From Vampirovibrionales bacterium (GTDB lineage Bacteria; Cyanobacteriota; Vampirovibrionia; Vampirovibrionales; Vampirovibrionaceae), in NCBI GenBank assembly GCA_039794365.1, contig JBDIVN010000006.1, forward strand, positions 71,390 through 135,389: a DNA stretch of 64,000 nucleotides. Reading direction: 5' to 3'. The notes under the pieces were generated by a model that was given only the letters and a program-made list of their open reading frames with translations, was not told the DNA's origin and made no database searches. This document shows, in pieces, positions 3,661-55,050 of this stretch; position 1 is the stretch's first letter; each line of letters opens with the position of its first letter. The position numbers and the translations under genes were made by a program.

Positions 3661-4431
3661 CTAATCAAGGATTGTGAGGATGTCGGGATCACCTTCCGTA
3701 ACGACTACTGTATGCTCAAAATGGGCCGATGGCAAGTGGTCTGTTGTCAAGACGGTCCACCCGTCCTCGGCGGTGTAGACGTCGTCACCGCCCAGGTTGA
3801 ACATTGGCTCGATGGCCAGCACCGAACCCGGACGCAATACCGGTCCGCGCTGCCCCGTACGGAAGTTGTGAACGAAGGGTTCCTCGTGAAGCTTGCGCCC
3901 GACCCCGTGGCCGCCGTAGTTTCGCACCAGGCCGTAGCCGTATTTTTTATTCACATCCTCCACCGCGCCGGAGACATCCTCCAGGTGGTTGCCGTCACGC
4001 ATCATGGCGATGGCCGCAAAGAGGCTCTCCTTTGTGGCGTCCAGCAGCTTCTGCAGATCCTCAGGGATTTCGCCCACACCCGCCGTAAAGGCGGCGTCGG
4101 CAATCATGCCCTTGTACGTCGCGCCCACGTCCACGCTGATAACGTCCCCTTCCTTGAGGACCCGCTCTTCGCTCGGAATACCGTGGACCACCTCGTCGTT
4201 GACGGAGGTGCACAGCGTCGCGGGAAAACCGTAATACCCCTGAAACGTGGGCAGGGCGCCGGATTTTCGGACATGCTCCTCGGCAAGGGTGTCGAGTTCC
4301 TTGGTGGTGATGCCGGGGCGCAGGTTCTCGCGCACCAGGGCATGAACTTCGGCCACGATGCGGCCCGCCTTTTTCATCAGGCTGATCTCGTGGCGGGATT
4401 TTCGATCGACGGTTGCGCTCATAATACTCAT
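3661..4431 (-). CDS. map: type I methionine aminopeptidase
   Basis: 256-aa ORF with M24A motifs (…GATYKGM.AD…, GHGVG…HE.P). Confidence 0.9.
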   Translation of the reverse strand: MSIMSATVDRKSRHEISLMKKAGRIVAEVHALVRENLRPGITTKELDTLAEEHVRKSGALPTFQGYYGFPATLCTSVNDEVVHGIPSEERVLKEGDVISVDVGATYKGMIADAAFTAGVGEIPEDLQKLLDATKESLFAAIAMMRDGNHLEDVSGAVEDVNKKYGYGLVRNYGGHGVGRKLHEEPFVHNFRTGQRGPVLRPGSVLAIEPMFNLGGDDVYTAEDGWTVLTTDHLPSAHFEHTVVVTEGDPDILTILD

Positions 4432-8207: not shown

Positions 8208-9179
8208 ATGAGCATGATTCACGTCCTCAAAACCAACCGCCTGGTCCAGTTTCTCATCGTCGGCCTGTGGCTGCTGCTGGTGGGATTCCTGCTGACCGTG
8301 CGCACCGTGGGCGAAGCCGGCCCCCACGCCATCGAGCCGCTGCCGGTCCCGCCGACCCAGGAAAACGGCCCGGACGGTTTTGACTTCCTGGTCATCGGCG
8401 ACACCGGCTCCGGCGCGTCGTTCCAGTTCGACGTGGCCAAACAGATGATGGCCCGCTACGAGCAACAGCCCTACACGCTGGTGCTCCACGTCGGCGATAT
8501 CATCTATCCCAGCGGCGAATTCCGCAAAAGCGGCGACGAACTGTACAAAAAAGTGTATGCCCCCCTGATGGACAAGGGGGTCGAATTCAGGACGGTTCTG
8601 GGCAACCACGACGTCCGTTACGGTTACGATCCCGGCGCCCTGGCGTTCTACGGCATGCCGGACCGGTATTACCATTTTTCCAGGGGCAACGTGGATTTCT
8701 TCGCCATCGACACCAACATCATGAACCGGGACGAGCAGCGCCAGTGGCTGGATGAGGCCCTGGCAAAAAGCGACGCCCGCTGGAAGATCGTCTACGGCCA
8801 CCATCCCATCCACTCATCCGGCCAGCACGGCCCCAACACCGCCCTCAGCCGACGGCTGGCACCCCTGCTGATCAAACACGGCGTGGATTTCTACATCGCG
8901 GGCCACGAGCATAACTACGAGCGCTTTGAGCCGATCCGGGGCGTGGTTCACCTGGTTTCCGGCGGCGGCGGCGCCTGGCTGCGCTCTTTCGCCAAAGAGC
9001 AGCCCCATTCCAAGGTGCGCCTGAGCACCCATCATTTCCTGGACTTCCAGGTCCGGGGGGACACGATCCGGTTTCAGGCCGTCGACAAGACCGGCCGGGT
9101 TATCGACGCGGAAGTTTTCAGGAAGCAGCCCGCCATCCGACCCCTGACCAGGGACCAGAAACTGAAACCTGCCGCCTGA
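8208..9179 (+). CDS. calcineurin-like metallophosphoesterase (purple-acid-phosphatase-like), membrane-anchored
   Basis: N-terminal TM segment followed by the metallophosphatase motifs GD.G…GD..Y…GNHD…GH.H. Confidence 0.7.
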   Translation: MSMIHVLKTNRLVQFLIVGLWLLLVGFLLTVRTVGEAGPHAIEPLPVPPTQENGPDGFDFLVIGDTGSGASFQFDVAKQMMARYEQQPYTLVLHVGDIIYPSGEFRKSGDELYKKVYAPLMDKGVEFRTVLGNHDVRYGYDPGALAFYGMPDRYYHFSRGNVDFFAIDTNIMNRDEQRQWLDEALAKSDARWKIVYGHHPIHSSGQHGPNTALSRRLAPLLIKHGVDFYIAGHEHNYERFEPIRGVVHLVSGGGGAWLRSFAKEQPHSKVRLSTHHFLDFQVRGDTIRFQAVDKTGRVIDAEVFRKQPAIRPLTRDQKLKPAA

Positions 9180-43759: not shown

Positions 43760-44011
43760 TTATACTGCGGCGCCAATCTTCTTCAGTTCGGCCAGAATTT
43801 CCTCATCGGTCTTCGCATTGACCGCAATCCGCTGAAAGGTTTTGGCGTCGACGCCCAGCCGGCTCAACAGGCCGCTGTCCATCGGGCAGGGGTACTCCAG
43901 ATCAAACGGCTCAATTTCACCGGCGGCTTCCAGACGGGCCTTGTCAATCATCCGGGCCAGCCACGGAATGCCGCCCACCGGGACGGAGCCGGAACGGGGT
44001 TCGTTTGCCAT
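43760..44011 (-). CDS. small hypothetical protein
   Basis: 83-aa ORF (…GIPWLARMIDKARL…); no family recognised. Confidence 0.45.
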   Translation of the reverse strand: MANEPRSGSVPVGGIPWLARMIDKARLEAAGEIEPFDLEYPCPMDSGLLSRLGVDAKTFQRIAVNAKTDEEILAELKKIGAAV

Positions 44012-44131
44012 CGGCAGTCTCCTTTTTCGAATCGCTTCCTACCCGGATCTTAACGAAAGGCCCCTCGAATGTCGAACCCCCTCCTGGTACAATAGGCCGT
44101 GTTTTCAGACTAACCCTGGAGTTTGCGCGTC

Positions 44132-44809
44132 ATGATGGGCCTGCAAGACCCTGCCGTTTCACAGTTCACCGAAAAGCAGGTGCTGGAGAAAACCCGGCTG
44201 GCCGCCGATACGGCCTGGCGGCTTCTGGAAGAGATTACGCTGCTACTGAAACCCGGCATCCGCGAATCCGGGGCGAAGGACCAGGCCTTGGCCCTGATGC
44301 GTGATCGCGGCGTCACGAAACACTGGCACCAGCCCTATATCCGTTTTGGCTCCCACAGCATCCTCACCTTTGCAGACAAGCCCGAAGACGACCGGGTTCT
44401 GGGCGAAGACGACATTGCCTACATCGATCTCGGCCCGGTGATTGATGCCGGCGGCCTCGACGTGGAAGGAGACGTGGGCCACACGGTGGTCTTCGGCGAC
44501 AACCTCCTGTTTCATGACCTCAAGGCCACCAGCGAACGGCTGTTTCATGAGGGGGTCGCCTACTGGAAAAACCACCGGCCCACCGGGGTGGAACTCTACG
44601 ACTATTTGAAGGCTGCCGCCAGCAGCGCCGGGTACGACTTTCACCTGAACCCCGCCGGACACCTCATCGGGACGTTTCCCCACAAGGGCTGGCGCAACGG
44701 CCTCAACACCTATCCCTACCCCCCGGAGCCGGGCATCTGGATTCTGGAAATTCAGATCCGCCACCCGGAGCAGCCCTACGGCGCTTTCTACGAAGCGGTT
44801 CTTCTCTGA
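44132..44809 (+). CDS. M24 (pita-bread fold) metallopeptidase-like protein
   Basis: D.G…D…H…E…E spacing reminiscent of methionine aminopeptidase/prolidase (IDLGPVIDAGGLDVEGD…, AGHLIGTFPH, ILEIQI); GGAG 10 nt before the ATG. Confidence 0.5.
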   Translation: MMGLQDPAVSQFTEKQVLEKTRLAADTAWRLLEEITLLLKPGIRESGAKDQALALMRDRGVTKHWHQPYIRFGSHSILTFADKPEDDRVLGEDDIAYIDLGPVIDAGGLDVEGDVGHTVVFGDNLLFHDLKATSERLFHEGVAYWKNHRPTGVELYDYLKAAASSAGYDFHLNPAGHLIGTFPHKGWRNGLNTYPYPPEPGIWILEIQIRHPEQPYGAFYEAVLL

Positions 44810-44911
44810 CCATGGTGGCGGCGGCGTTGTATACCGCCGCCATGCTGCCCGTCACATGATCCCAAAGCCTGCACCTTCCCCGAATTGTGAAACCGGGCCT
44901 ATAATGGGGCT

Positions 44912-46111
44912 ATGTTCAAGTTCATCAAGACCCGACTGACCCCCGGTGCCCGCGCCCTGAACGTGGCGCCTTTGTTCAGCGTGCCCCTGGACGAGTACAA
45001 GGCCACCGGGGAACGCGACGCCATTCTGGCCTCGTCCGGGATGGGTAAATCCTACCTGACCGGCGTCATCATGGAAGAGACGCTGGAAAGCGGCTGCAGC
45101 ATCTGCGTCATTGACCCGGAAGGGGAACACTTCACCCTGGCGGAACGCTACCCGATGATGATCATCGGCGGTGAACACGGCAACCTGCCCCTGGAAGAGG
45201 CGGCCATCGATCTTTTCATCGACGCCATGCTGAAAACCGGCTTCTCCGCCGTCTTCGATCTCTCGGAGTATCTGGATGACGAGCAGCAGCATCTGTACGG
45301 CGTCATTGCGGACAAGCTGTTCCAGGCCGAACAGAAGTACCGCCGCAAGATTCGCCTCATCGTGGAGGAGGCCCAGATCTACGCCCCCCAGAAAACCATG
45401 GGCGGAGCTGCGTCTTCGCGCAGCAAGACCAAGAAGATGGACCCGCTGCTGGCCAGCCAGAAGATCGCCAAGCGGGGCCGCAAGCGGGCCATTGACAGCC
45501 TGTGGGCCACCCAGCGTCCCGCCAGCATCAGCAAGGATATTCTCAGCCAGTGCAACCGGTTCTGGTTTGGGGGGATCACCTCCGAGCAGGATTACAAGGC
45601 CATTCGGCCCTTTCTTAACGAGGCGGGGATCTCCTTTGCGGAGATCAAGGCTCTGCACCCCGGCGAGTTCTACTTTTACAGCAAGGGGATGACCAAGAAG
45701 ATCAAGATCCGCAAGCGCCACTGCAAACACGCCGGGGCCACGCCGGAGGCGGGCATGAACTTTCACGCCACGGTGAACAGTTCCATGGAGAAAGCCATCG
45801 CCTCGCTGACCGAAGCCGTTGCCCAGCGGGCCGTCGAGAAGCAGAAGGAAGAATCGGAAATCGCCCTGCTCAAGGCCCAGATCCGCGAACTGAAGAAGGA
45901 CAACGAGAACCTGCGCAAGGAACTGGAGCAGGAGCAGCTGGCCACCAAGGTGATTGAGCGGCTGGAGAAATCGCCCACATCCAGCACGTCGTCCTCACGG
46001 CGTCCCCGCAAGCCGGGAGGACAGGACGATGCGGCCCTGCAGGCCAAAATCGCGGAAAAGATCGAGGAATCCAGCCGGCGGCTGCATCCGACGAAAATCA
46101 ATCTCGACTAG
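44912..46111 (+). CDS. HerA/FtsK-like (DUF87) P-loop ATPase with C-terminal coiled coil
   Basis: Walker A SSGMGKSY, Walker B …LIVEEAQ, conserved WATQRP motif; C-terminal heptad-rich KQKEESEIALLKAQIRELKK… and a Ser/Arg tail. Confidence 0.6.
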   Translation: MFKFIKTRLTPGARALNVAPLFSVPLDEYKATGERDAILASSGMGKSYLTGVIMEETLESGCSICVIDPEGEHFTLAERYPMMIIGGEHGNLPLEEAAIDLFIDAMLKTGFSAVFDLSEYLDDEQQHLYGVIADKLFQAEQKYRRKIRLIVEEAQIYAPQKTMGGAASSRSKTKKMDPLLASQKIAKRGRKRAIDSLWATQRPASISKDILSQCNRFWFGGITSEQDYKAIRPFLNEAGISFAEIKALHPGEFYFYSKGMTKKIKIRKRHCKHAGATPEAGMNFHATVNSSMEKAIASLTEAVAQRAVEKQKEESEIALLKAQIRELKKDNENLRKELEQEQLATKVIERLEKSPTSSTSSSRRPRKPGGQDDAALQAKIAEKIEESSRRLHPTKINLD

Positions 46112-46169: not shown

Positions 46170-46439
46170 TTACGCGAAGATGGCGCCTGCCTCGTAGAGA
46201 TCCTGGCGCATCTCCAGGCGCTTCTGGGCGTCCTTGTCGTTCATCTGGTCCGCAATAGACACAATGTCATCCGCGCTCTGACTCTCCGAACGGGCGACAT
46301 CCAACAACTGGGCCATCAGGCCGGTGGCCGAGCCGTCGCTTCCGTAACTCTCCAGGCTTGCATTCGACGTTGATCCGTCGCGGCCCGGCCTCTTCTGCAT
46401 GGCCTGCACCATGCCCAGGGCACCAACACTGCCAAGCAT
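46170..46439 (-). CDS. small-protein family member A (C-terminal …LYEAGAIFA)
   Basis: ATG at 46439 preceded by a GGAGAGAGGAGAGAG purine tract; paralogous to the ORFs at 47014, 47596 and 48255. Confidence 0.5.
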   Translation of the reverse strand: MLGSVGALGMVQAMQKRPGRDGSTSNASLESYGSDGSATGLMAQLLDVARSESQSADDIVSIADQMNDKDAQKRLEMRQDLYEAGAIFA

Positions 46440-46687
46440 AAACGCTCTCTCCTCTCTCCGAACACTTCGTTTTTCGATCACAATCGCACACGGTTGCCGT
46501 ATAAAAATAAAAACGATTTTACGGTGCGGATTGCCCCGCCTCTCTCCAAAAGGCTTTGACGGGCTTTAGATTTTATTTATGCACCAGCGGCAAAAAAAAT
46601 GTTTTTATGCAAGCACAGGGAGCAACACACTCCTACAGAATCGGTATCAGGTACAGGCAGGGGATAACAGGAGGTTTGACAGCAAGT

Positions 46688-47013: not shown

Positions 47014-47403
47014 TCAGGTTCCAAAAACGGCGCCCGCATCGAACAGCCCTTGGGACTGGGCGCGGCGGCGGCGTTTTTGCTCGTCTCGCGCCTGCATGCG
47101 CAGGTATTCGATCTCCTCGATGATCTTGCGTTGCTCGGCCCGGATCGCCAACTGGCGATCCAACTGGTTGACGGCCAGCATCTCGTTAAGGGACATGTCG
47201 GGCCTCACGCTGTTGGCCAGCGCAATGCGCTGATCGCTGTAATAAAAGCTGTCGCCGCTGCCGACGAGTTTGTCCAGGGCGCGTCCGCTCAGGTGCCGGT
47301 AGGCGCCGGGATTTCCAGCGACCTGGGCGGCCACGTCGGAAATGGGCCTGCCCAACGGGCGAAACACCGTATTCAGTGCCAGGGGGACACCGGACAGAGA
47401 CAT
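47014..47403 (-). CDS. small-protein family member B (C-terminal …LFDAGAVFGT)
   Basis: ATG at 47403 with GGAG 12 nt upstream; N-terminus MSLSGVPLAL…; basic Q/R-rich helix before the tail. Confidence 0.5.
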   Translation of the reverse strand: MSLSGVPLALNTVFRPLGRPISDVAAQVAGNPGAYRHLSGRALDKLVGSGDSFYYSDQRIALANSVRPDMSLNEMLAVNQLDRQLAIRAEQRKIIEEIEYLRMQARDEQKRRRRAQSQGLFDAGAVFGT

Positions 47404-47595
47404 TAGACACACACTCCGGGAAATTGCTCTTTCCAAACTGCTCTTCATGTTTATAAAAACATTAGAGCGTTCGAAATTGCCCGCCCGTTACAAAAGAAGC
47501 TTCTTAAAATTTGACCGGAACGCGGGGGGCCGCGCTCCGGTCATTCACTTCCCAACTTCCAAAAACGGATCTTTCCTCACTTTCCTCACTGAAAC

Positions 47596-47961
47596 CTAGT
47601 AGAAGACATGCCCCTGGGCGATGGCGTTCTCCTCGGAGATCCGGTCCTGTTCGCGCATCCGCTTGAAGCGGTCCAGTTGCACCTCCAGTTTCTCAATCTC
47701 GGCCATGATGGCTTTCAGAATATTGTTGAGCACCGCCAGTTGCGGGAAATAGCTGGACCAGTCGGACACCTGCCTTTTCTCCACCCGGCCCGTGAAATGG
47801 ACCGTATCGCGTGACACCATGAGATCGTTGCTGAGGCTGGCCGCCAACGCGGAGCGCTCGGAGAGCGCATTGTTGAATTGCGATTTCGCATCGCTCAGCG
47901 CGGCAATCGTTGCCAGTTCGCCAAAGAGGATTCCAATACTCACGACCTGTATCTCCCACAC
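47596..47961 (-). CDS. small-protein family member E (C-terminal …AIAQGHVFY)
   Basis: Start uncertain (GTG at 47961 or ATG at 47820); the C-terminal RMREQDR…AQGHVFY aligns with member B. Confidence 0.4.
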   Translation of the reverse strand: MWEIQVVSIGILFGELATIAALSDAKSQFNNALSERSALAASLSNDLMVSRDTVHFTGRVEKRQVSDWSSYFPQLAVLNNILKAIMAEIEKLEVQLDRFKRMREQDRISEENAIAQGHVFY

Positions 47962-48254: not shown

Positions 48255-48560
48255 TTATGCAAAAACGGAGAGGCCGGAACTGATGGCCTGCTGGCGGCGA
48301 GCCGTCTCCTGCTTCTGCCGCTTTCGGGCCGCTTCGGCCATCAGCGAGTGGGCCTCGTACATGGAGGCGTTCAGGTTATTTTTCATCTCCAACTGGGTAT
48401 CCGCCTGGGCAATCTGCCCCAGAAAACGCGGATTGTTGTAGTTGGCGGCGGCACGATTCGCCAGCCCCATGCGGGCTTCGTTATTGCTCTGGATGCCGAA
48501 CGCGGCGTTGTTGGCGCCGTTAATGCCGCTCAGCCCTGAAAACAGCGTAATTGGTGACAT
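48255..48560 (-). CDS. small-protein family member C (C-terminal …ISSGLSVFA)
   Basis: ATG at 48560 with GAAGG upstream; N-terminus MSPITLFSGLSGINGANNAAFG; Asn/Ala-rich. Confidence 0.5.
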   Translation of the reverse strand: MSPITLFSGLSGINGANNAAFGIQSNNEARMGLANRAAANYNNPRFLGQIAQADTQLEMKNNLNASMYEAHSLMAEAARKRQKQETARRQQAISSGLSVFA

Positions 48561-48862
48561 AACAACCCACAGCCTTCTTTCATCTACTCGACGTCTTTAA
48601 GCATTAAACCCGTTTTTCCGATTTTGTTGCCACCTCAAAATGATTCATTTTGTATATACAGACAGCCACCAGCAAGAAATCCGCACGCTACAACTCATAC
48701 CCTGAGAGTGTTCCCAAGATCATAAAAGTTATTCGCTATGGTTTTTCAGAAACATATGCCATAGTGGTTAAAACAACCTCTCAGACTGAAGCGACCCGAT
48801 CCGCCGCCTCAGCGAGGCCATACACACCCACTCCCTGTTTCCAATTCAGGAGTTGTTTTGTC

Positions 48863-50338
48863 ATGACCAATTCTCCAAACCCATACCCCATTAGGCCGGA
48901 AATCGATCCACGGGCTGAATCCGCCTTACCGGTGATTCTGGAAGGAAGCGTCCGCAAACACGAAACCCTTCCGCCAGAAGGACGAAACCGGACGGGCGGA
49001 CTGCTGCAAGCCCTGCTCATGGAGGCCGCCAACATCAAGCAGGCGATCCGTCAGCAGAATGACCACCTGGGTGACGACCCGGATGCGTTCAAGACGTCCG
49101 GCCTGATCCAAATCCCCCGGTTTGAACCCCTGCCCGATGCCGCAGAACTCAACGCCGAACTGGATCGCCGTCAGCCGAACAGAAACACCGGGATGAAGGC
49201 GATTCACAATGCCGTCATCCAGAACGAAATCGAAAAGGAAAAAGCCCGCCGTCAGGCCATCCAGATGGAGGCCGTCGATCAACAGATGGCCCGCCTGGCC
49301 CGCGCCATCGTGGAAACGGCTGAAGCGCAGAAGATGCAGCAGGCCCGCAGCTTCCACCGCCAGCAGGCCACAGCCTTTGATACAATACCGGGAATCATCC
49401 CCGGCTCCCTGGCCCGCCACGGCATCGGCCAGACGAACATACGCCCTTTGATTGCCGAAAGCCTGCCGATTGTTCACGCCATCCCCGGCGCCCAAAAACC
49501 AATCAGCCGCGCCGACTACCTCCGCCAGCAAAACGCCCTCGCCATGGAACGCGCCCAACGCGATGCCCTGTACGCCCAGCAGCGCTATTATGAGGAACAG
49601 ACCCGCCAAGAGCGCGTCCGACGGAATGTGGAATACCAGCAGCGTTTGAGAACCGGAAATCAACAGCAGGCCTTGGCTCAGCCGGTAAAAGTTTTCCCCC
49701 AGGCTCAATCCTCCTCCCCAGTGCCTGGAAGTTATGCTGAGGCTCTTAAAACCCTTGATGCTCTAACTGATAAAATAGATCAGGTAATCGAGAGCCTTCT
49801 TGAAGCAATACCGTTGCCTCCTCAGCAGGCTTATCAAATGGTTCAGGCTGGTCATCTTAGTCAGGTACGAACAAAGCGCGTCTCCCTATGGTATAACTGG
49901 GGCGATATACTAAAGGCTCCCCACGTTACTGCGGGTAATGCAAAGACCATTCCCCTTTCAGCTTACGAAAACGCCGTGGATCTGGCGGAGGCTTTGGACA
50001 GAGTCTGCAATAATCTGGGTTCCAAGGCTCCTATTAATAACTGGATCCGTCCAGGTAATCGCCGCTACCACGGCCAGGGTCTGGCAGTGGATTTTGAAGG
50101 AACGAAGGCCTGGAAAGACGGTCCACTTTATACAGCATTGAGACGAACTCCCGAGATCAAACGTATAGGACAACCTGATAATAACTATCCAGGAATGCAT
50201 GCGGATATTGGCCCTAATGGATGGGTTCCTGGGCGGCAGTTTCTTTTCATTGATAACGGATACTATAAACCTGGACGTGACTATACCGTTCCGGTTTTTA
50301 CTGGGCCACAATCGGCTCGTTTAAGGCCAGGAACGTAA
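48863..50338 (+). CDS. polymorphic-toxin-like protein: coiled-coil N-terminal region plus low-GC C-terminal M15/LAS-type zinc peptidase domain
   Basis: CAGGAG 11 nt before the ATG at 48863. C-terminal …RYHGQGLAVDF…GMHADIGP matches the H..G.AVD / H.D signature of M15 D-Ala-D-Ala carboxypeptidase-like peptidases. GC drops from about 62% to about 47% at about 49.71 kb. Confidence 0.55.
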   Translation: MTNSPNPYPIRPEIDPRAESALPVILEGSVRKHETLPPEGRNRTGGLLQALLMEAANIKQAIRQQNDHLGDDPDAFKTSGLIQIPRFEPLPDAAELNAELDRRQPNRNTGMKAIHNAVIQNEIEKEKARRQAIQMEAVDQQMARLARAIVETAEAQKMQQARSFHRQQATAFDTIPGIIPGSLARHGIGQTNIRPLIAESLPIVHAIPGAQKPISRADYLRQQNALAMERAQRDALYAQQRYYEEQTRQERVRRNVEYQQRLRTGNQQQALAQPVKVFPQAQSSSPVPGSYAEALKTLDALTDKIDQVIESLLEAIPLPPQQAYQMVQAGHLSQVRTKRVSLWYNWGDILKAPHVTAGNAKTIPLSAYENAVDLAEALDRVCNNLGSKAPINNWIRPGNRRYHGQGLAVDFEGTKAWKDGPLYTALRRTPEIKRIGQPDNNYPGMHADIGPNGWVPGRQFLFIDNGYYKPGRDYTVPVFTGPQSARLRPGT

Positions 50339-52757: not shown

Positions 52758-53540
52758 TTATTCAAATTCGTCGAAGTCATCCGGCTCCTGGGGGATTTCG
52801 TCGGGGAGGGCGTCCATGACTTCCAGGGCCATCTTGGCGGCGGCCTGCTGGGCCTCCTTCTTGGAGGCGCCCTTGCCGTAACCCATCACCTCGTCATTGA
52901 TCAGCACCTCGATATAAAACGTCTTCTTGTGGGCGGGGCCGCTTTCGCGGGCCGTGCGATAAACGGGCAGGCCGTCGCCTTCGGCCTGGGTCAGCTCCTG
53001 CAGCACCGCCTTGAAGTTGTCCTTCGTGGGGCTTAAGTCCACCTGGGTCACTTCGTCTTCGAGTACTCGCAGGAGCATCTCGCGGGCCGCCGCCATCTTG
53101 CCGTCGAGAAACAGGGCGCCCAGCAGGGACTCGAATCCGCAGGCCAGGTTGGAGGTTTTCTTGCGTCCCCCGCTTCTCGCCTCGCTGACGCCAAAAATCA
53201 TGTATTCCCCCAGGTTCAGCTGCTGGGCGAATTTGGCAAGGGTGGCATCGCTGACGATGACCGCGCGAATCTTGGTGAGTTCGCCCTCGCGGTAATCGGG
53301 AAAGCGTTCAAAAATATACTCGCTGACGATGAGCTTGAGCACCGCGTCACCGAGAAACTCCAGGCGCTCGTAGTTTTCAAGGTGCGAAAGCTTGTTCTCG
53401 TAAGTATAGGAACTGTGGGTCAGCGCCCGGTCATAGATTTCGTAGATGCTTTCATGGGACGGCAGATCGATGCCCAGACTGTCGAGCAGTTCGTCAATCT
53501 GGCGCATGCGTGATTCGTCAATGCCGTAAGGATAGGTCAT
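52758..53540 (-). CDS. rnc: ribonuclease III
   Basis: RNase III signature (ERLEFLGDAVL) plus the C-terminal dsRBD. Confidence 0.9.
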   Translation of the reverse strand: MTYPYGIDESRMRQIDELLDSLGIDLPSHESIYEIYDRALTHSSYTYENKLSHLENYERLEFLGDAVLKLIVSEYIFERFPDYREGELTKIRAVIVSDATLAKFAQQLNLGEYMIFGVSEARSGGRKKTSNLACGFESLLGALFLDGKMAAAREMLLRVLEDEVTQVDLSPTKDNFKAVLQELTQAEGDGLPVYRTARESGPAHKKTFYIEVLINDEVMGYGKGASKKEAQQAAAKMALEVMDALPDEIPQEPDDFDEFE

Positions 53541-53594
53541 CGCGAGCGTCCCATATTCCCAAGGCCCTTAAAATCTTAAAATATGGACCGCTTT

Positions 53595-54461
53595 TCAGGG
53601 AAACAGGGGAAGGAGATCTTTGACCAGCCCCTGCTGAAGAACGACCCAATGAATATAATAATACGAGATTGCGCCGCAGAAAAGATAACTGTCCAGACGG
53701 TCCAGCAGCCCGCCGTGCCCCTGGAAGAGTCCGCCGGAATCCTTCACCCCGGCATCCCGCTTGATGAGGGATTCGGCCAGGTCGCCCAGCTGAGAGACCA
53801 CCACCAACAGGACACTGAGGAGCAAGGCATGGAGCCAGTTGAAATACGCCAGGAAGGCAAAGCCGGTGCCGGCGATAATGCCCACAACCAGCCCGCCGAT
53901 GGCTCCCTCTGTGGTTTTCTTGGGGCTGATTTCCGGGTAGAGCGGGTGTCTGCCCATCAGTTTGCCCACGTAATACGCCCCCACATCGGACATACTGATG
54001 ACGAGCACCGTGAAAAAGACGTAGTAGGCACCCTCGGCAGAAACGTTGCGCAGCAGAATAAAGTGCATGGGCAGGAAGGCCACGTAAAAGATGGCCAGAA
54101 ACGTGGCGCCAATGTCGTTGATCGTGGCACGGGGTTTGCGAAACAGCAGCCGGATGAAGCTGCCGATAATCCCCAGGGTGATCATGGGCAGGAAGTACTG
54201 GGTCTTGTCGAAGTGGGCCAGGAGGATCAGCGCAATGCCGGTGGTCAGGACGATCAGCTGGGAAGGCCGGATATCCTTGGCCTTCATGATGGAGGTCAGC
54301 TCCCGGAACCCCTGGTAGAGGGTAAACAGAACCGCGCCGGTCCAGACCCAGCCGCCGGTAAAGATCAGGGTCGCCATCACGCAACCCAGCAGGATTCCCA
54401 TCCCCACCCGGCGGCCTTTGCGCGGAGCAGCGGGAGGCGTCGCCAGTTGTTCTTCTGTCAT
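53595..54461 (-). CDS. cdsA: phosphatidate cytidylyltransferase
   Basis: 288-aa multipass membrane protein with the C-terminal CTP-transferase signature (…GHGG..DR.DS…). Confidence 0.85.
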   Translation of the reverse strand: MTEEQLATPPAAPRKGRRVGMGILLGCVMATLIFTGGWVWTGAVLFTLYQGFRELTSIMKAKDIRPSQLIVLTTGIALILLAHFDKTQYFLPMITLGIIGSFIRLLFRKPRATINDIGATFLAIFYVAFLPMHFILLRNVSAEGAYYVFFTVLVISMSDVGAYYVGKLMGRHPLYPEISPKKTTEGAIGGLVVGIIAGTGFAFLAYFNWLHALLLSVLLVVVSQLGDLAESLIKRDAGVKDSGGLFQGHGGLLDRLDSYLFCGAISYYYIHWVVLQQGLVKDLLPLFP

Positions 54462-54486
54462 AAGGGCCTCCGCGCGATCGGATGGA

Positions 54487-55050
54487 TCAGATTTCCATCA
54501 CTTCCTTTTCTTTTTCCGCCACCAGCCGGTCCAGTTCCGCCGTATAGCGATCCGTCAGCTTCTGGATCTGCTCCTGCCGGGACTTGAACTCGTCTTCGGG
54601 CAGGTTCTCTTCCTTCTGAGCCTTGTCCAGCTCGTTGCTGGCATCGCGGCGGATGTTGCGGATGGCAATCTTGCCGTCCTCGCCCATCTTCTTCACCAGC
54701 TTGGACATTTCCTTGCGCCGTTCTTCCGTCAGCGGCGGCACGTTAAGGCGGATGACGGACCCGTCATTGTTTGGGGGCAGGCCGAGTTCGGATTTGGCGA
54801 TGGCCTTCTCGATCTCACCGAGCATGGACTTGTCGTAGGGCTGGATCACGATGGTCGTCCCGCCCTGGACGGAGACGTTGGACATCTGCCGCACCGGCGT
54901 GGGCGTGCCGTAGTAGTCCACCTGGACCCGGTCCAGCATCAGGGGGTTGGCCCGTCCGGTGCGCACCGTTCCCATCTCATTCTGGGTGGCGGCCACCGCC
55001 TTTTTCATTTTTTCCTCTGCCGTCGCATGTATCTCGTCAACGCTGACCAT
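54487..55050 (-). CDS. frr: ribosome recycling factor
   Basis: 187-aa RRF consensus (…RTGRANP..LD.V.VDYYG..TP…). Confidence 0.9.
   Translation of the reverse strand: MVSVDEIHATAEEKMKKAVAATQNEMGTVRTGRANPLMLDRVQVDYYGTPTPVRQMSNVSVQGGTTIVIQPYDKSMLGEIEKAIAKSELGLPPNNDGSVIRLNVPPLTEERRKEMSKLVKKMGEDGKIAIRNIRRDASNELDKAQKEENLPEDEFKSRQEQIQKLTDRYTAELDRLVAEKEKEVMEI

Follow-up and report, generated by a model that had tools for sequence, protein, structure and literature searches.

A lineage-wide FtsK-HerA-superfamily ATPase of the Vampirovibrionales and its relation to a neighbouring M24-fold gene

All characterised members of the FtsK-HerA superfamily, including HerA, FtsK, VirB4 and B204, are, to our knowledge, ring translocases. 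HerA proteins are 500-620 amino acids (aa) long, carry a HAS barrel and act with partners such as NurA (usually accompanied by Mre11 and Rad50), SIR2 or DUF4297 proteins; the archaeal HerA-NurA pair is an end-resection helicase, and SIR2-HerA and DUF4297-HerA are bacterial anti-phage systems. Here we describe an ATPase of this superfamily encoded in a 64,000-nucleotide stretch of DNA from a Vampirovibrionales bacterium (assembly GCA_039794365.1, contig JBDIVN010000006.1, positions 71,390 to 135,389 of the forward strand), which we refer to as the window. The ATPase gene (44912-46111, + strand, 399 aa) follows, on the same strand and after a gap of 102 bp, a gene for an M24-fold protein (44132-44809, +). 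The two genes are independent of each other. We regard it as fairly probable that the ATPase is a single-gene, vertically inherited DNA-handling motor, likely captured from a phage or mobile element and fixed early in the order.

The ATPase and described members of its superfamily

The protein has the P-loop core of the FtsK-HerA superfamily, complete in its catalytic motifs. The RecA-like core spans residues 1-289 (44912-45778, +) and contains the Walker A motif GMGKSY (residues 43-48; 45038-45055, +), the Walker B motif VEEAQ (residues 151-155; 45362-45376, +) and the WATQRP motif (residues 198-203; 45503-45520, +), which stands after the sequence AKRGRKRA (residues 186-193). In an alignment of 39 orthologues all four motifs were invariant, with G43 to Y48 unchanged in Walker A and E152, E153, A154 and Q155 unchanged in Walker B. 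The invariant blocks of this alignment are GERDAILASSGMGKSYL, EEAQIYAPQ, AKRGRKRAIDSLWATQRPAS, KDILSQCNRFWFGGI and CKHAGATP.

Residues 24-164 matched the Pfam DUF87/HerA central domain (E = 4.5e-13, 50.3 bits; cut-off 23.2), the PADLOC HerA models and mad8 matched at 1e-13 to 2e-19, and the best sequence matches in the PDB were HerA chains (1.9e-8 with the single sequence, 1.7e-9 with the family profile). HMMER aligned the AKRGRKRA...WATQRP segment with AKEGRKYG...ASQRP of HerA 8xau. An AlphaFold2 model of the monomer, with a mean predicted local distance difference test (pLDDT) value of 71, was compared with the PDB by Foldseek; HerA structures (E = 2.6e-6) were the best matches, and STIV2 B204, TcpA, FtsK and VirB4 were also among the top ones, all with probabilities of 0.98-1.0. 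The template modelling scores (TM-scores) to solved members of the superfamily were modest (0.3-0.6) because of the pLDDT of the model and the long tail of the protein. A search of BFVD with the same model retrieved packaging ATPases of membrane-containing viruses.

In contrast to HerA, the ATPase has no N-terminal HAS barrel. Only two short strands precede the P-loop strand in the AlphaFold2 model, and position 14 of the DUF87 profile already aligns with residue 24. The Walker A motif begins at residue 43, whereas the aligned Walker A region of the HerA chains lies at residues 144-222.

The C-terminal part of the protein consists of a coiled coil and a basic tail, both absent from HerA. Residues 290-352 (45779-45967, +) were modelled as a single 63-residue helix with block pLDDT values of 87-93. 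In the best heptad register 55% of the a/d positions are hydrophobic, as opposed to 29% of the other positions; the matches to Pfam coiled-coil models were weak. The helix is conserved: its heptads are kept among the orthologues, its end carries the nearly invariant sequence ATKVIERL, and L299, L334, E341, A344, V347 and R350 are invariant. The last 47 residues (353-399; 45968-46111, +, stop codon included) are rich in S, K, R and P. This tail varies in sequence and length between orthologues and keeps a cluster of R and K residues; its first part (residues 353-371) has pLDDT values below 50.

A first-pass annotation of this DNA had assigned the protein to the HerA/FtsK/VirB4 class on the basis of the motifs GMGKSY, VEEAQ and WATQRP. 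All three motifs are present in the protein, and the Pfam, PADLOC, PDB and Foldseek results agree with the class. The heptad-rich tail with an S/R-rich end that it described corresponds to the helix and the basic last 47 residues. Its designation of the gene as an orphan was also borne out: Pfam and PADLOC searches of the neighbouring proteins found no helicase, nuclease or defence gene, the Pfam matches being only DUF5069, RNase III and similar domains.

HerA and the ATPase have in common the RecA-like core, the Walker A and Walker B motifs, the AK.GRK...QRP block and the DUF87 match. They differ in length and in the vertical descent of the ATPase within one bacterial order, and no NurA, SIR2 or DUF4297 partner lies beside the ATPase gene. 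NurA was found neither in its neighbourhood in the window nor among the conserved neighbours of the 44 orthologous loci described below, and PADLOC detected no effector of the SIR2-HerA or DUF4297-HerA type in the M24 protein or in ten other neighbours. Scores against the canonical HerA equivalog models of NCBIfam were 34.5 bits for NF040819 (cut-off 970) and 18.5 bits for NF040937 (cut-off 800), and those against the anti-phage HerA equivalogs were 47.9 bits for NF042943 (cut-off 800) and 38.4 bits for NF042944 (cut-off 850). The match to mad8 (PADLOC PDLC04140; E = 3.4e-14, 51 bits, residues 37-279 against model positions 31-312 of 314) was of the same strength as those to the generic HerA models and therefore signifies similarity at the superfamily level only. 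No other mad gene of the MADS system was detected by PADLOC among the ten neighbouring proteins.

FtsK/SpoIIIE and the Streptomyces TraB-type dsDNA translocases belong to the same superfamily and have the same fold; FtsK (6t8g) is in the Foldseek list. FtsK is built from a motor and a C-terminal gamma (winged-helix) domain, a design that the ATPase, with its motor and C-terminal module, resembles. The similarity is at the superfamily level: the ATPase lacks the membrane anchor, the linker and the gamma domain of FtsK, and Pfam FtsK_SpoIIIE gave no match at E <= 0.1.

The similarity to VirB4 and TcpA, structural and weakly also in sequence, brings up the possibility that the ATPase is a motor for secretion or predation which, with VirB4, TcpA or type IV systems as models, would either deliver protein or DNA to the prey or build a filament on the cell surface. 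The Vampirovibrionales include the predator Vampirovibrio chlorellavorus, and in one clade pilin-like genes lie downstream of the ATPase gene. These pilin-like neighbours are, however, convergent and limited to that clade. No secretion genes adjoin the ATPase in a conserved manner, and no type IV secretion system genes were found among its neighbours in the 44 loci. The scores against the NCBIfam VirB4/TraC/TcpA models were 26.2 bits for NF045975 (cut-off 590), 12 bits for TIGR02746 (cut-off 567) and 11.2 bits for NF045971 (cut-off 325). The protein is far shorter than the VirB4 profiles (about 750-900 positions), and its sequence has no hydrophobic or membrane segment. We consider a secretion motor improbable.

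The packaging ATPases of membrane-containing viruses (STIV2 B204, A32-like, PH1 and corticovirus proteins) are, like the ATPase, minimal cores without a HAS barrel, and for B204 and the PH1 ATPase the target-normalised TM-score was about 0.6. They are only 200-240 aa long, have no coiled coil and are 14-18% identical to the chromosomal ATPase. In summary, the ATPase represents an uncharacterised, lineage-wide subfamily of FtsK-HerA motors outside every named family.

The ATPase gene and the adjacent M24 gene

Orthologues of the ATPase were collected by a pattern-based scan of one genome per GTDB species, which yielded 44 species-level loci. A tblastn search of these loci with the M24 protein located an M24 gene beside the ATPase gene in two of them (L002 and L004); the M24 gene adjoins the ATPase only in this sub-lineage. 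The M24 homologues themselves have other neighbours. Next to the closest homologue that was looked up (61% identity) lies a gene for an NMO-type oxidoreductase, and the homologues at 57% and 55% identity have a GNAT acetyltransferase gene and recA as neighbours. In two Rickettsiales metagenome-assembled genomes (L047 and L048, 6001-6702 in both) a protein 48% identical to the short M24 protein is encoded inside the nuo operon; its gene is inserted, together with other extra open reading frames (ORFs), between the genes for Oxidored_q6 (nuoB-like) and Complex1_30kDa (nuoC-like).

All-against-all clustering of the ORFs of the 44 loci revealed no neighbour that is conserved throughout; synteny was clade-specific. 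In the clade that includes this window, sdhCAB and a DUF5069 gene lie upstream of the ATPase gene and are divergent from it. In another clade, pilin-like genes, a gene whose product has a TonB-like end (judged by eye) and an acyl-CoA ligase gene lie downstream, and further loci have yet other neighbourhoods.

The intergenic sequence points in the same direction. A GC-rich hairpin (44807-44854, +) begins at the stop codon of the M24 gene; it has no U-tract, and its predicted folding energy is -26.5 kcal/mol (z = -2.5 relative to shuffled sequences). The hairpin likely marks a 3' end or transcript boundary. It is followed by the ATPase gene's own promoter (44876-44905, +), which consists of a -35-like element TTCCCC (44876-44881), an 18-nucleotide spacer and a perfect -10 element TATAAT (44900-44905) that ends 6 nucleotides before the ATPase ATG. 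This promoter was identified by reading the sequence and comparing the loci. A generic scan for promoters and terminators did not report it because the -35 element is weak.

The start of the ATPase could be placed in 41 of the loci, and 31 of these 41 have a TAnA(A/T)T box that starts 9-16 nucleotides, mostly 12-15, before the ATG. In several loci TTCCCx or TTTCCA was seen about 17-18 nucleotides upstream of the box (by eye, uncounted). The promoter therefore accompanies the ATPase gene irrespective of the gene upstream, and the ATPase is a transcription unit of its own.

The distance between the -10 element and the start codon suggests that the ATPase mRNA is probably leaderless or nearly so. 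Within the window the ATPase gene is the only ORF with a perfect TATAAT-N6-ATG arrangement at its start. A TAnAnT box 5-9 nucleotides before a possible start was also seen at four other ORFs (3661-4422, - strand; 8208-9179, +; 18003-20942, +; 53583-54587, +), so that leaderless expression may be used by several genes of this genome.

The upstream protein is 225 aa long if translated from the ATG at 44132; the open frame starts at a TTG codon at 44123, use of which would give 228 aa, and ends at 44809. It matched Pfam Peptidase_M24 (PF00557; E = 2.5e-11, 44.2 bits; cut-off 23) and is one of at least 120 related proteins, 218-233 aa in length, whose sources include Melainabacteria, Rickettsiales and other Alphaproteobacteria. 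When 25 of these homologues were aligned, none departed from the five metal ligands D102, D117, H180, E209 and E224, and H69 was likewise invariant. The AlphaFold2 model has a pLDDT of 94.7. In the Foldseek comparison it reached a TM-score of about 0.7 to the catalytic domains of Xaa-Pro peptidases and prolidases and to MetAP, at 15-22% identity to solved structures. With these M24 metallopeptidases the protein has the pita-bread fold and the five ligands in common; unlike the prolidases it has no N-terminal domain.

The M24 protein is therefore a complete, minimal, stand-alone pita-bread metallo-hydrolase and is not truncated. The first-pass annotation had called it a truncated M24 fold and had named a decayed paralogue of map as an alternative. 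The structural comparison that it proposed for both proteins recovered the M24 fold, as it did the HerA-class ATPase, and contradicted the truncation: the domain is complete and confidently modelled, with invariant ligands. A decayed map paralogue was rejected on the same features, the gene being intact and a member of a conserved family of its own. Identity with map proper was rejected too, as the protein belongs to a separate family of 218-233 aa and scored far under the cut-offs of the MetAP equivalogs (14.2 bits for TIGR00500, cut-off 171.35; 12.5 bits for TIGR00501, cut-off 222.65).

The same annotation had suggested that the two genes form an unusual HerA-plus-peptidase pair, possibly directed against phages. 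In such a two-gene system the ATPase would serve as sensor or motor and the M24 protein as effector. The two genes are indeed adjacent, on one strand and 102 bp apart, here and in L002 and L004, and the PADLOC HerA and mad8 models do match the ATPase. Yet the adjacency occurs in 2 of 44 loci, and elsewhere M24 homologues (44-61% identity) accompany NMO, RecA, GNAT or nuo genes. The genes are set apart by a hairpin and by a conserved promoter that belongs to the ATPase alone, the ATPase is inherited vertically across the lineage, the anti-phage HerA equivalog scores are a small fraction of the cut-offs, and the M24 protein has no PADLOC match. Co-occurrence in other genomes, proposed as a check, was thus found in two of the 44 loci, and the four M24 homologues that were looked up lie beside unrelated genes. 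The outcome named in advance as speaking against a pair, a housekeeping family with no co-occurring neighbour, is essentially what we observed. We regard an anti-phage pair as very improbable.

Inheritance, phage relatives and proposed function

The orthologues in the 44 loci are 56-75% identical and have intact reading frames. Forty-one of the 44 genomes are labelled as Vampirovibrionales, Vampirovibrio, Melainabacteria or Cyanobacteriota. The three exceptions, L009, L014 and L043, are labelled Coleofasciculaceae, Oculatellaceae and Gammaproteobacteria; they are probably mis-binned, because they contain a Vampirovibrionales ATPase in a Vampirovibrionales gene order.

The divergence of the ATPase was compared with that of succinate dehydrogenase subunits by pairwise protein identities in 13 genomes that have both the ATPase and the sdh genes. 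The ATPase identities correlated with those of SdhA (r = 0.88) and SdhB (r = 0.90; Mantel p = 0.0005), and the mean identities were similar (74% for the ATPase, 76% for SdhA, 77% for SdhB). Because of this correlation, the similar mean identities and the invariant blocks, the sequence data indicate that the ATPase has been inherited vertically under purifying selection of housekeeping level. It is not the pattern of a gene from a defence island, nor that of mobile-element debris in decay.

The closest relatives of the ATPase are nevertheless phage genes. An exhaustive profile search returned 304 cluster representatives with E <= 1e-30; with the limit relaxed to 1e-10 there were 5413. The look-up of clusters of distant relatives gave no informative names, and a literature search found nothing on this ATPase family. 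The short relatives have 310-390 aa and are 40-65% identical to the ATPase in the core. They have no coiled coil, with the exception of P0244 (392 aa), which has both a coiled coil and a basic tail. Every context of a short relative that was retrieved is a temperate tailed phage or prophage, with genes for small and large terminase, DnaB, RecT, integrase, a Dit-like tail protein and Acb2/Tad1, toxin-antitoxin genes of the Gp49/HigB type, and many small ORFs. Twenty-seven viral contigs in IMG/VR carry relatives, one of them being the L058 contig. The short phage DUF87 ATPases (310-350 aa) have the core and the invariant motifs in common with the chromosomal protein; they differ from it by the lack of the coiled coil and basic tail and by another N-terminal extension, and are encoded in early regions. 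In the temperate-phage contigs L054 (9410-11005), L055 (9391-10960) and L057 (9383-10942), an excisionase-like gene of the HTH_17 type, a 112-125-aa ORF and the gene for a short DUF87 ATPase make up a recurrent module, in this order; in L055 the module adjoins an integrase gene.

Long relatives have 470-620 aa and are 28-37% identical to the ATPase across the core and into the coiled coil. They resemble it in the HGG.TP motif after the core and in the position of the coiled coil, and differ in being borne by mobile elements and in having an extra C-terminal region, which looks winged-helix-like by eye; Pfam found no winged-helix domain in these proteins. Relatives of similar length and identity to the long ones occur on haloarchaeal and mycobacterial plasmids and in one podovirus.

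In a neighbour-joining tree of 75 sequences (249 core columns, 100 bootstraps) the Vampirovibrionales clade was monophyletic in 100 of 100 replicates and grouped with the short phage forms in 88. The short phage forms were never monophyletic without the Vampirovibrionales clade (0/100). The sister of the Vampirovibrionales clade contained the P0396 group in 74 replicates, and the nearest group is 65% identical in the core. This nesting among the short phage forms favours acquisition of the gene from a phage by the ancestor of the order.

Given such relatives, the ATPase gene could be what is left of a prophage or conjugative element, derived from a packaging or transfer ATPase and now decaying without a function. 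Relatives do occur on plasmids and phages, and PHROG 2666, labelled 'terminase large subunit', gave a partial match (1e-15). Against decay stand the intact frame in 44 species at 56-75% identity, the invariant motifs, the conserved promoter, a mean identity equal to that of SdhA and SdhB, and the housekeeping genes that flank the ATPase in the chromosome. Moreover, phages that carry the sister genes have canonical terminases of their own. We consider a remnant the least probable of the explanations weighed here. The label of phage packaging ATPase was not adopted either, the PHROG match being partial and the small and large terminases of those phages being separate genes.

A second possibility suggested by the phage relatives is single-gene immunity or superinfection exclusion acquired from a temperate phage and fixed in the lineage: the ATPase would keep related phages or plasmids from entering or replicating, with partners perhaps encoded elsewhere. 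The closest relatives lie in early or lysogeny regions next to genes for a repressor, an integrase and an excisionase-like HTH_17 protein, defence systems often contain HerA-class ATPases, and there are the PADLOC matches. Defence genes, however, are normally patchy in distribution and fast-evolving, whereas the ATPase is present in all 44 sampled species, is as conserved as SdhA and SdhB and diverges in step with them. None of the ten neighbouring window proteins had a PADLOC match to a defence gene, and the G+C content of the ATPase gene (0.605) is close to that of the window (0.586). Immunity therefore appears unlikely, if marginally less so than a secretion motor.

We thus favour a DNA-handling motor that acts without a partner gene at the locus. 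By analogy with the characterised members of the superfamily, which are ring translocases, the ATPase would assemble into a ring, probably a hexamer, and would spend ATP to translocate nucleic acid, most likely double-stranded DNA, through the pore. The coiled coil may dimerise, pairing the rings, or it may tether them. For the basic tail we envisage contact with DNA or a partner, and it may replace the putative DNA-binding C-terminal region of the long relatives. The ancestral gene would have been that of a phage or mobile element, captured and fixed early in the order. The present cellular role would be a constrained form of DNA handling such as segregation, resolution, repair or, speculatively like the rest, the handling of DNA during predation. 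In a more detailed version, the captured gene was an early-region temperate-phage ATPase, acquired at the root of the Vampirovibrionales, which gained the coiled coil and the basic tail and became an indispensable DNA motor; this version we offer only tentatively, as possible rather than probable.

Several observations weigh against this interpretation or limit it. The AlphaFold2 model of the ATPase is of moderate confidence, and its most conserved segment (residues 189-214) is poorly modelled. No conserved neighbour is informative, and gene context lends no support to the substrate or the cellular role. Presence throughout the order is deduced from the 44 loci of a pattern-based scan, not a full census of presence and absence. 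The exact sister group is weakly supported (22/100 for one fixed set), and long phage branches could distort the neighbour-joining topology. Given these branches and the simple tree method, transfer may have gone from phage to cell or from cell to phage. Finally, the leaderless transcript is a prediction from the DNA sequence.

Surrounding genes and implications

In public data a 225-aa M24 protein (P0121) and a 399-aa ATPase (P0001), both identical to the proteins described here, are encoded on one contig; the ATPase is named 'DUF87 domain-containing protein' and nothing further. Upstream of the M24 gene the window encodes the DUF5069 protein (43760-44011, - strand, 83 aa; Pfam E = 3.6e-17). 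A DUF5069 gene lies beside sdhCAB in 16 related loci (approximately 71% identity), and in most of these 16 it stands directly beside the ATPase gene, in divergent orientation.

Downstream of the ATPase gene, the G+C content of the segment 46112-52700 is 0.47-0.56, compared with about 0.59 in the rest of the window, and none of its ORFs matched Pfam or PADLOC. Bounded by the ATPase gene and rnc (52758-53540, -), the segment is possibly an island specific to the lineage. It contains genes for four small proteins of 101-144 aa, all on the - strand (46170-46481, 47014-47448, 47596-47961 and 48255-48560), with weak mutual similarity. Their C-terminal halves appear by eye to be rich in charged residues, and two of the four end in (D/E)AGA(I/V)F. 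In L002 and L004 kin of these proteins, ending in DAGALYV or DAGALG, are encoded directly downstream of the ATPase gene in convergent orientation. The segment also contains an ORF of 562 aa (48650-50338, +), likewise with no Pfam or PADLOC match. In its C-terminal part we noted HGQGLAVDF...GMHADIG, a pattern that may resemble the motifs of zinc D,D-peptidases.

The claim of a defence pair of HerA and a peptidase can be dropped, and a phage challenge of the cloned pair would very probably show no protection. We are left with a subfamily of FtsK-HerA motors that lack a HAS barrel and have a coiled-coil tail, and whose nearest relatives are genes of temperate phages. The ATPase is as conserved as respiratory enzymes throughout an order of predators that are related to cyanobacteria and are not photosynthetic. 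The conserved TATAAT-N6-ATG arrangement provides a testable case of leaderless expression in this lineage. If the domestication is true, a phage motor would have turned into a core cellular component and would define a new functional family, and the ATPase would offer a way into the cell biology of the Vampirovibrionales, about which little is known.

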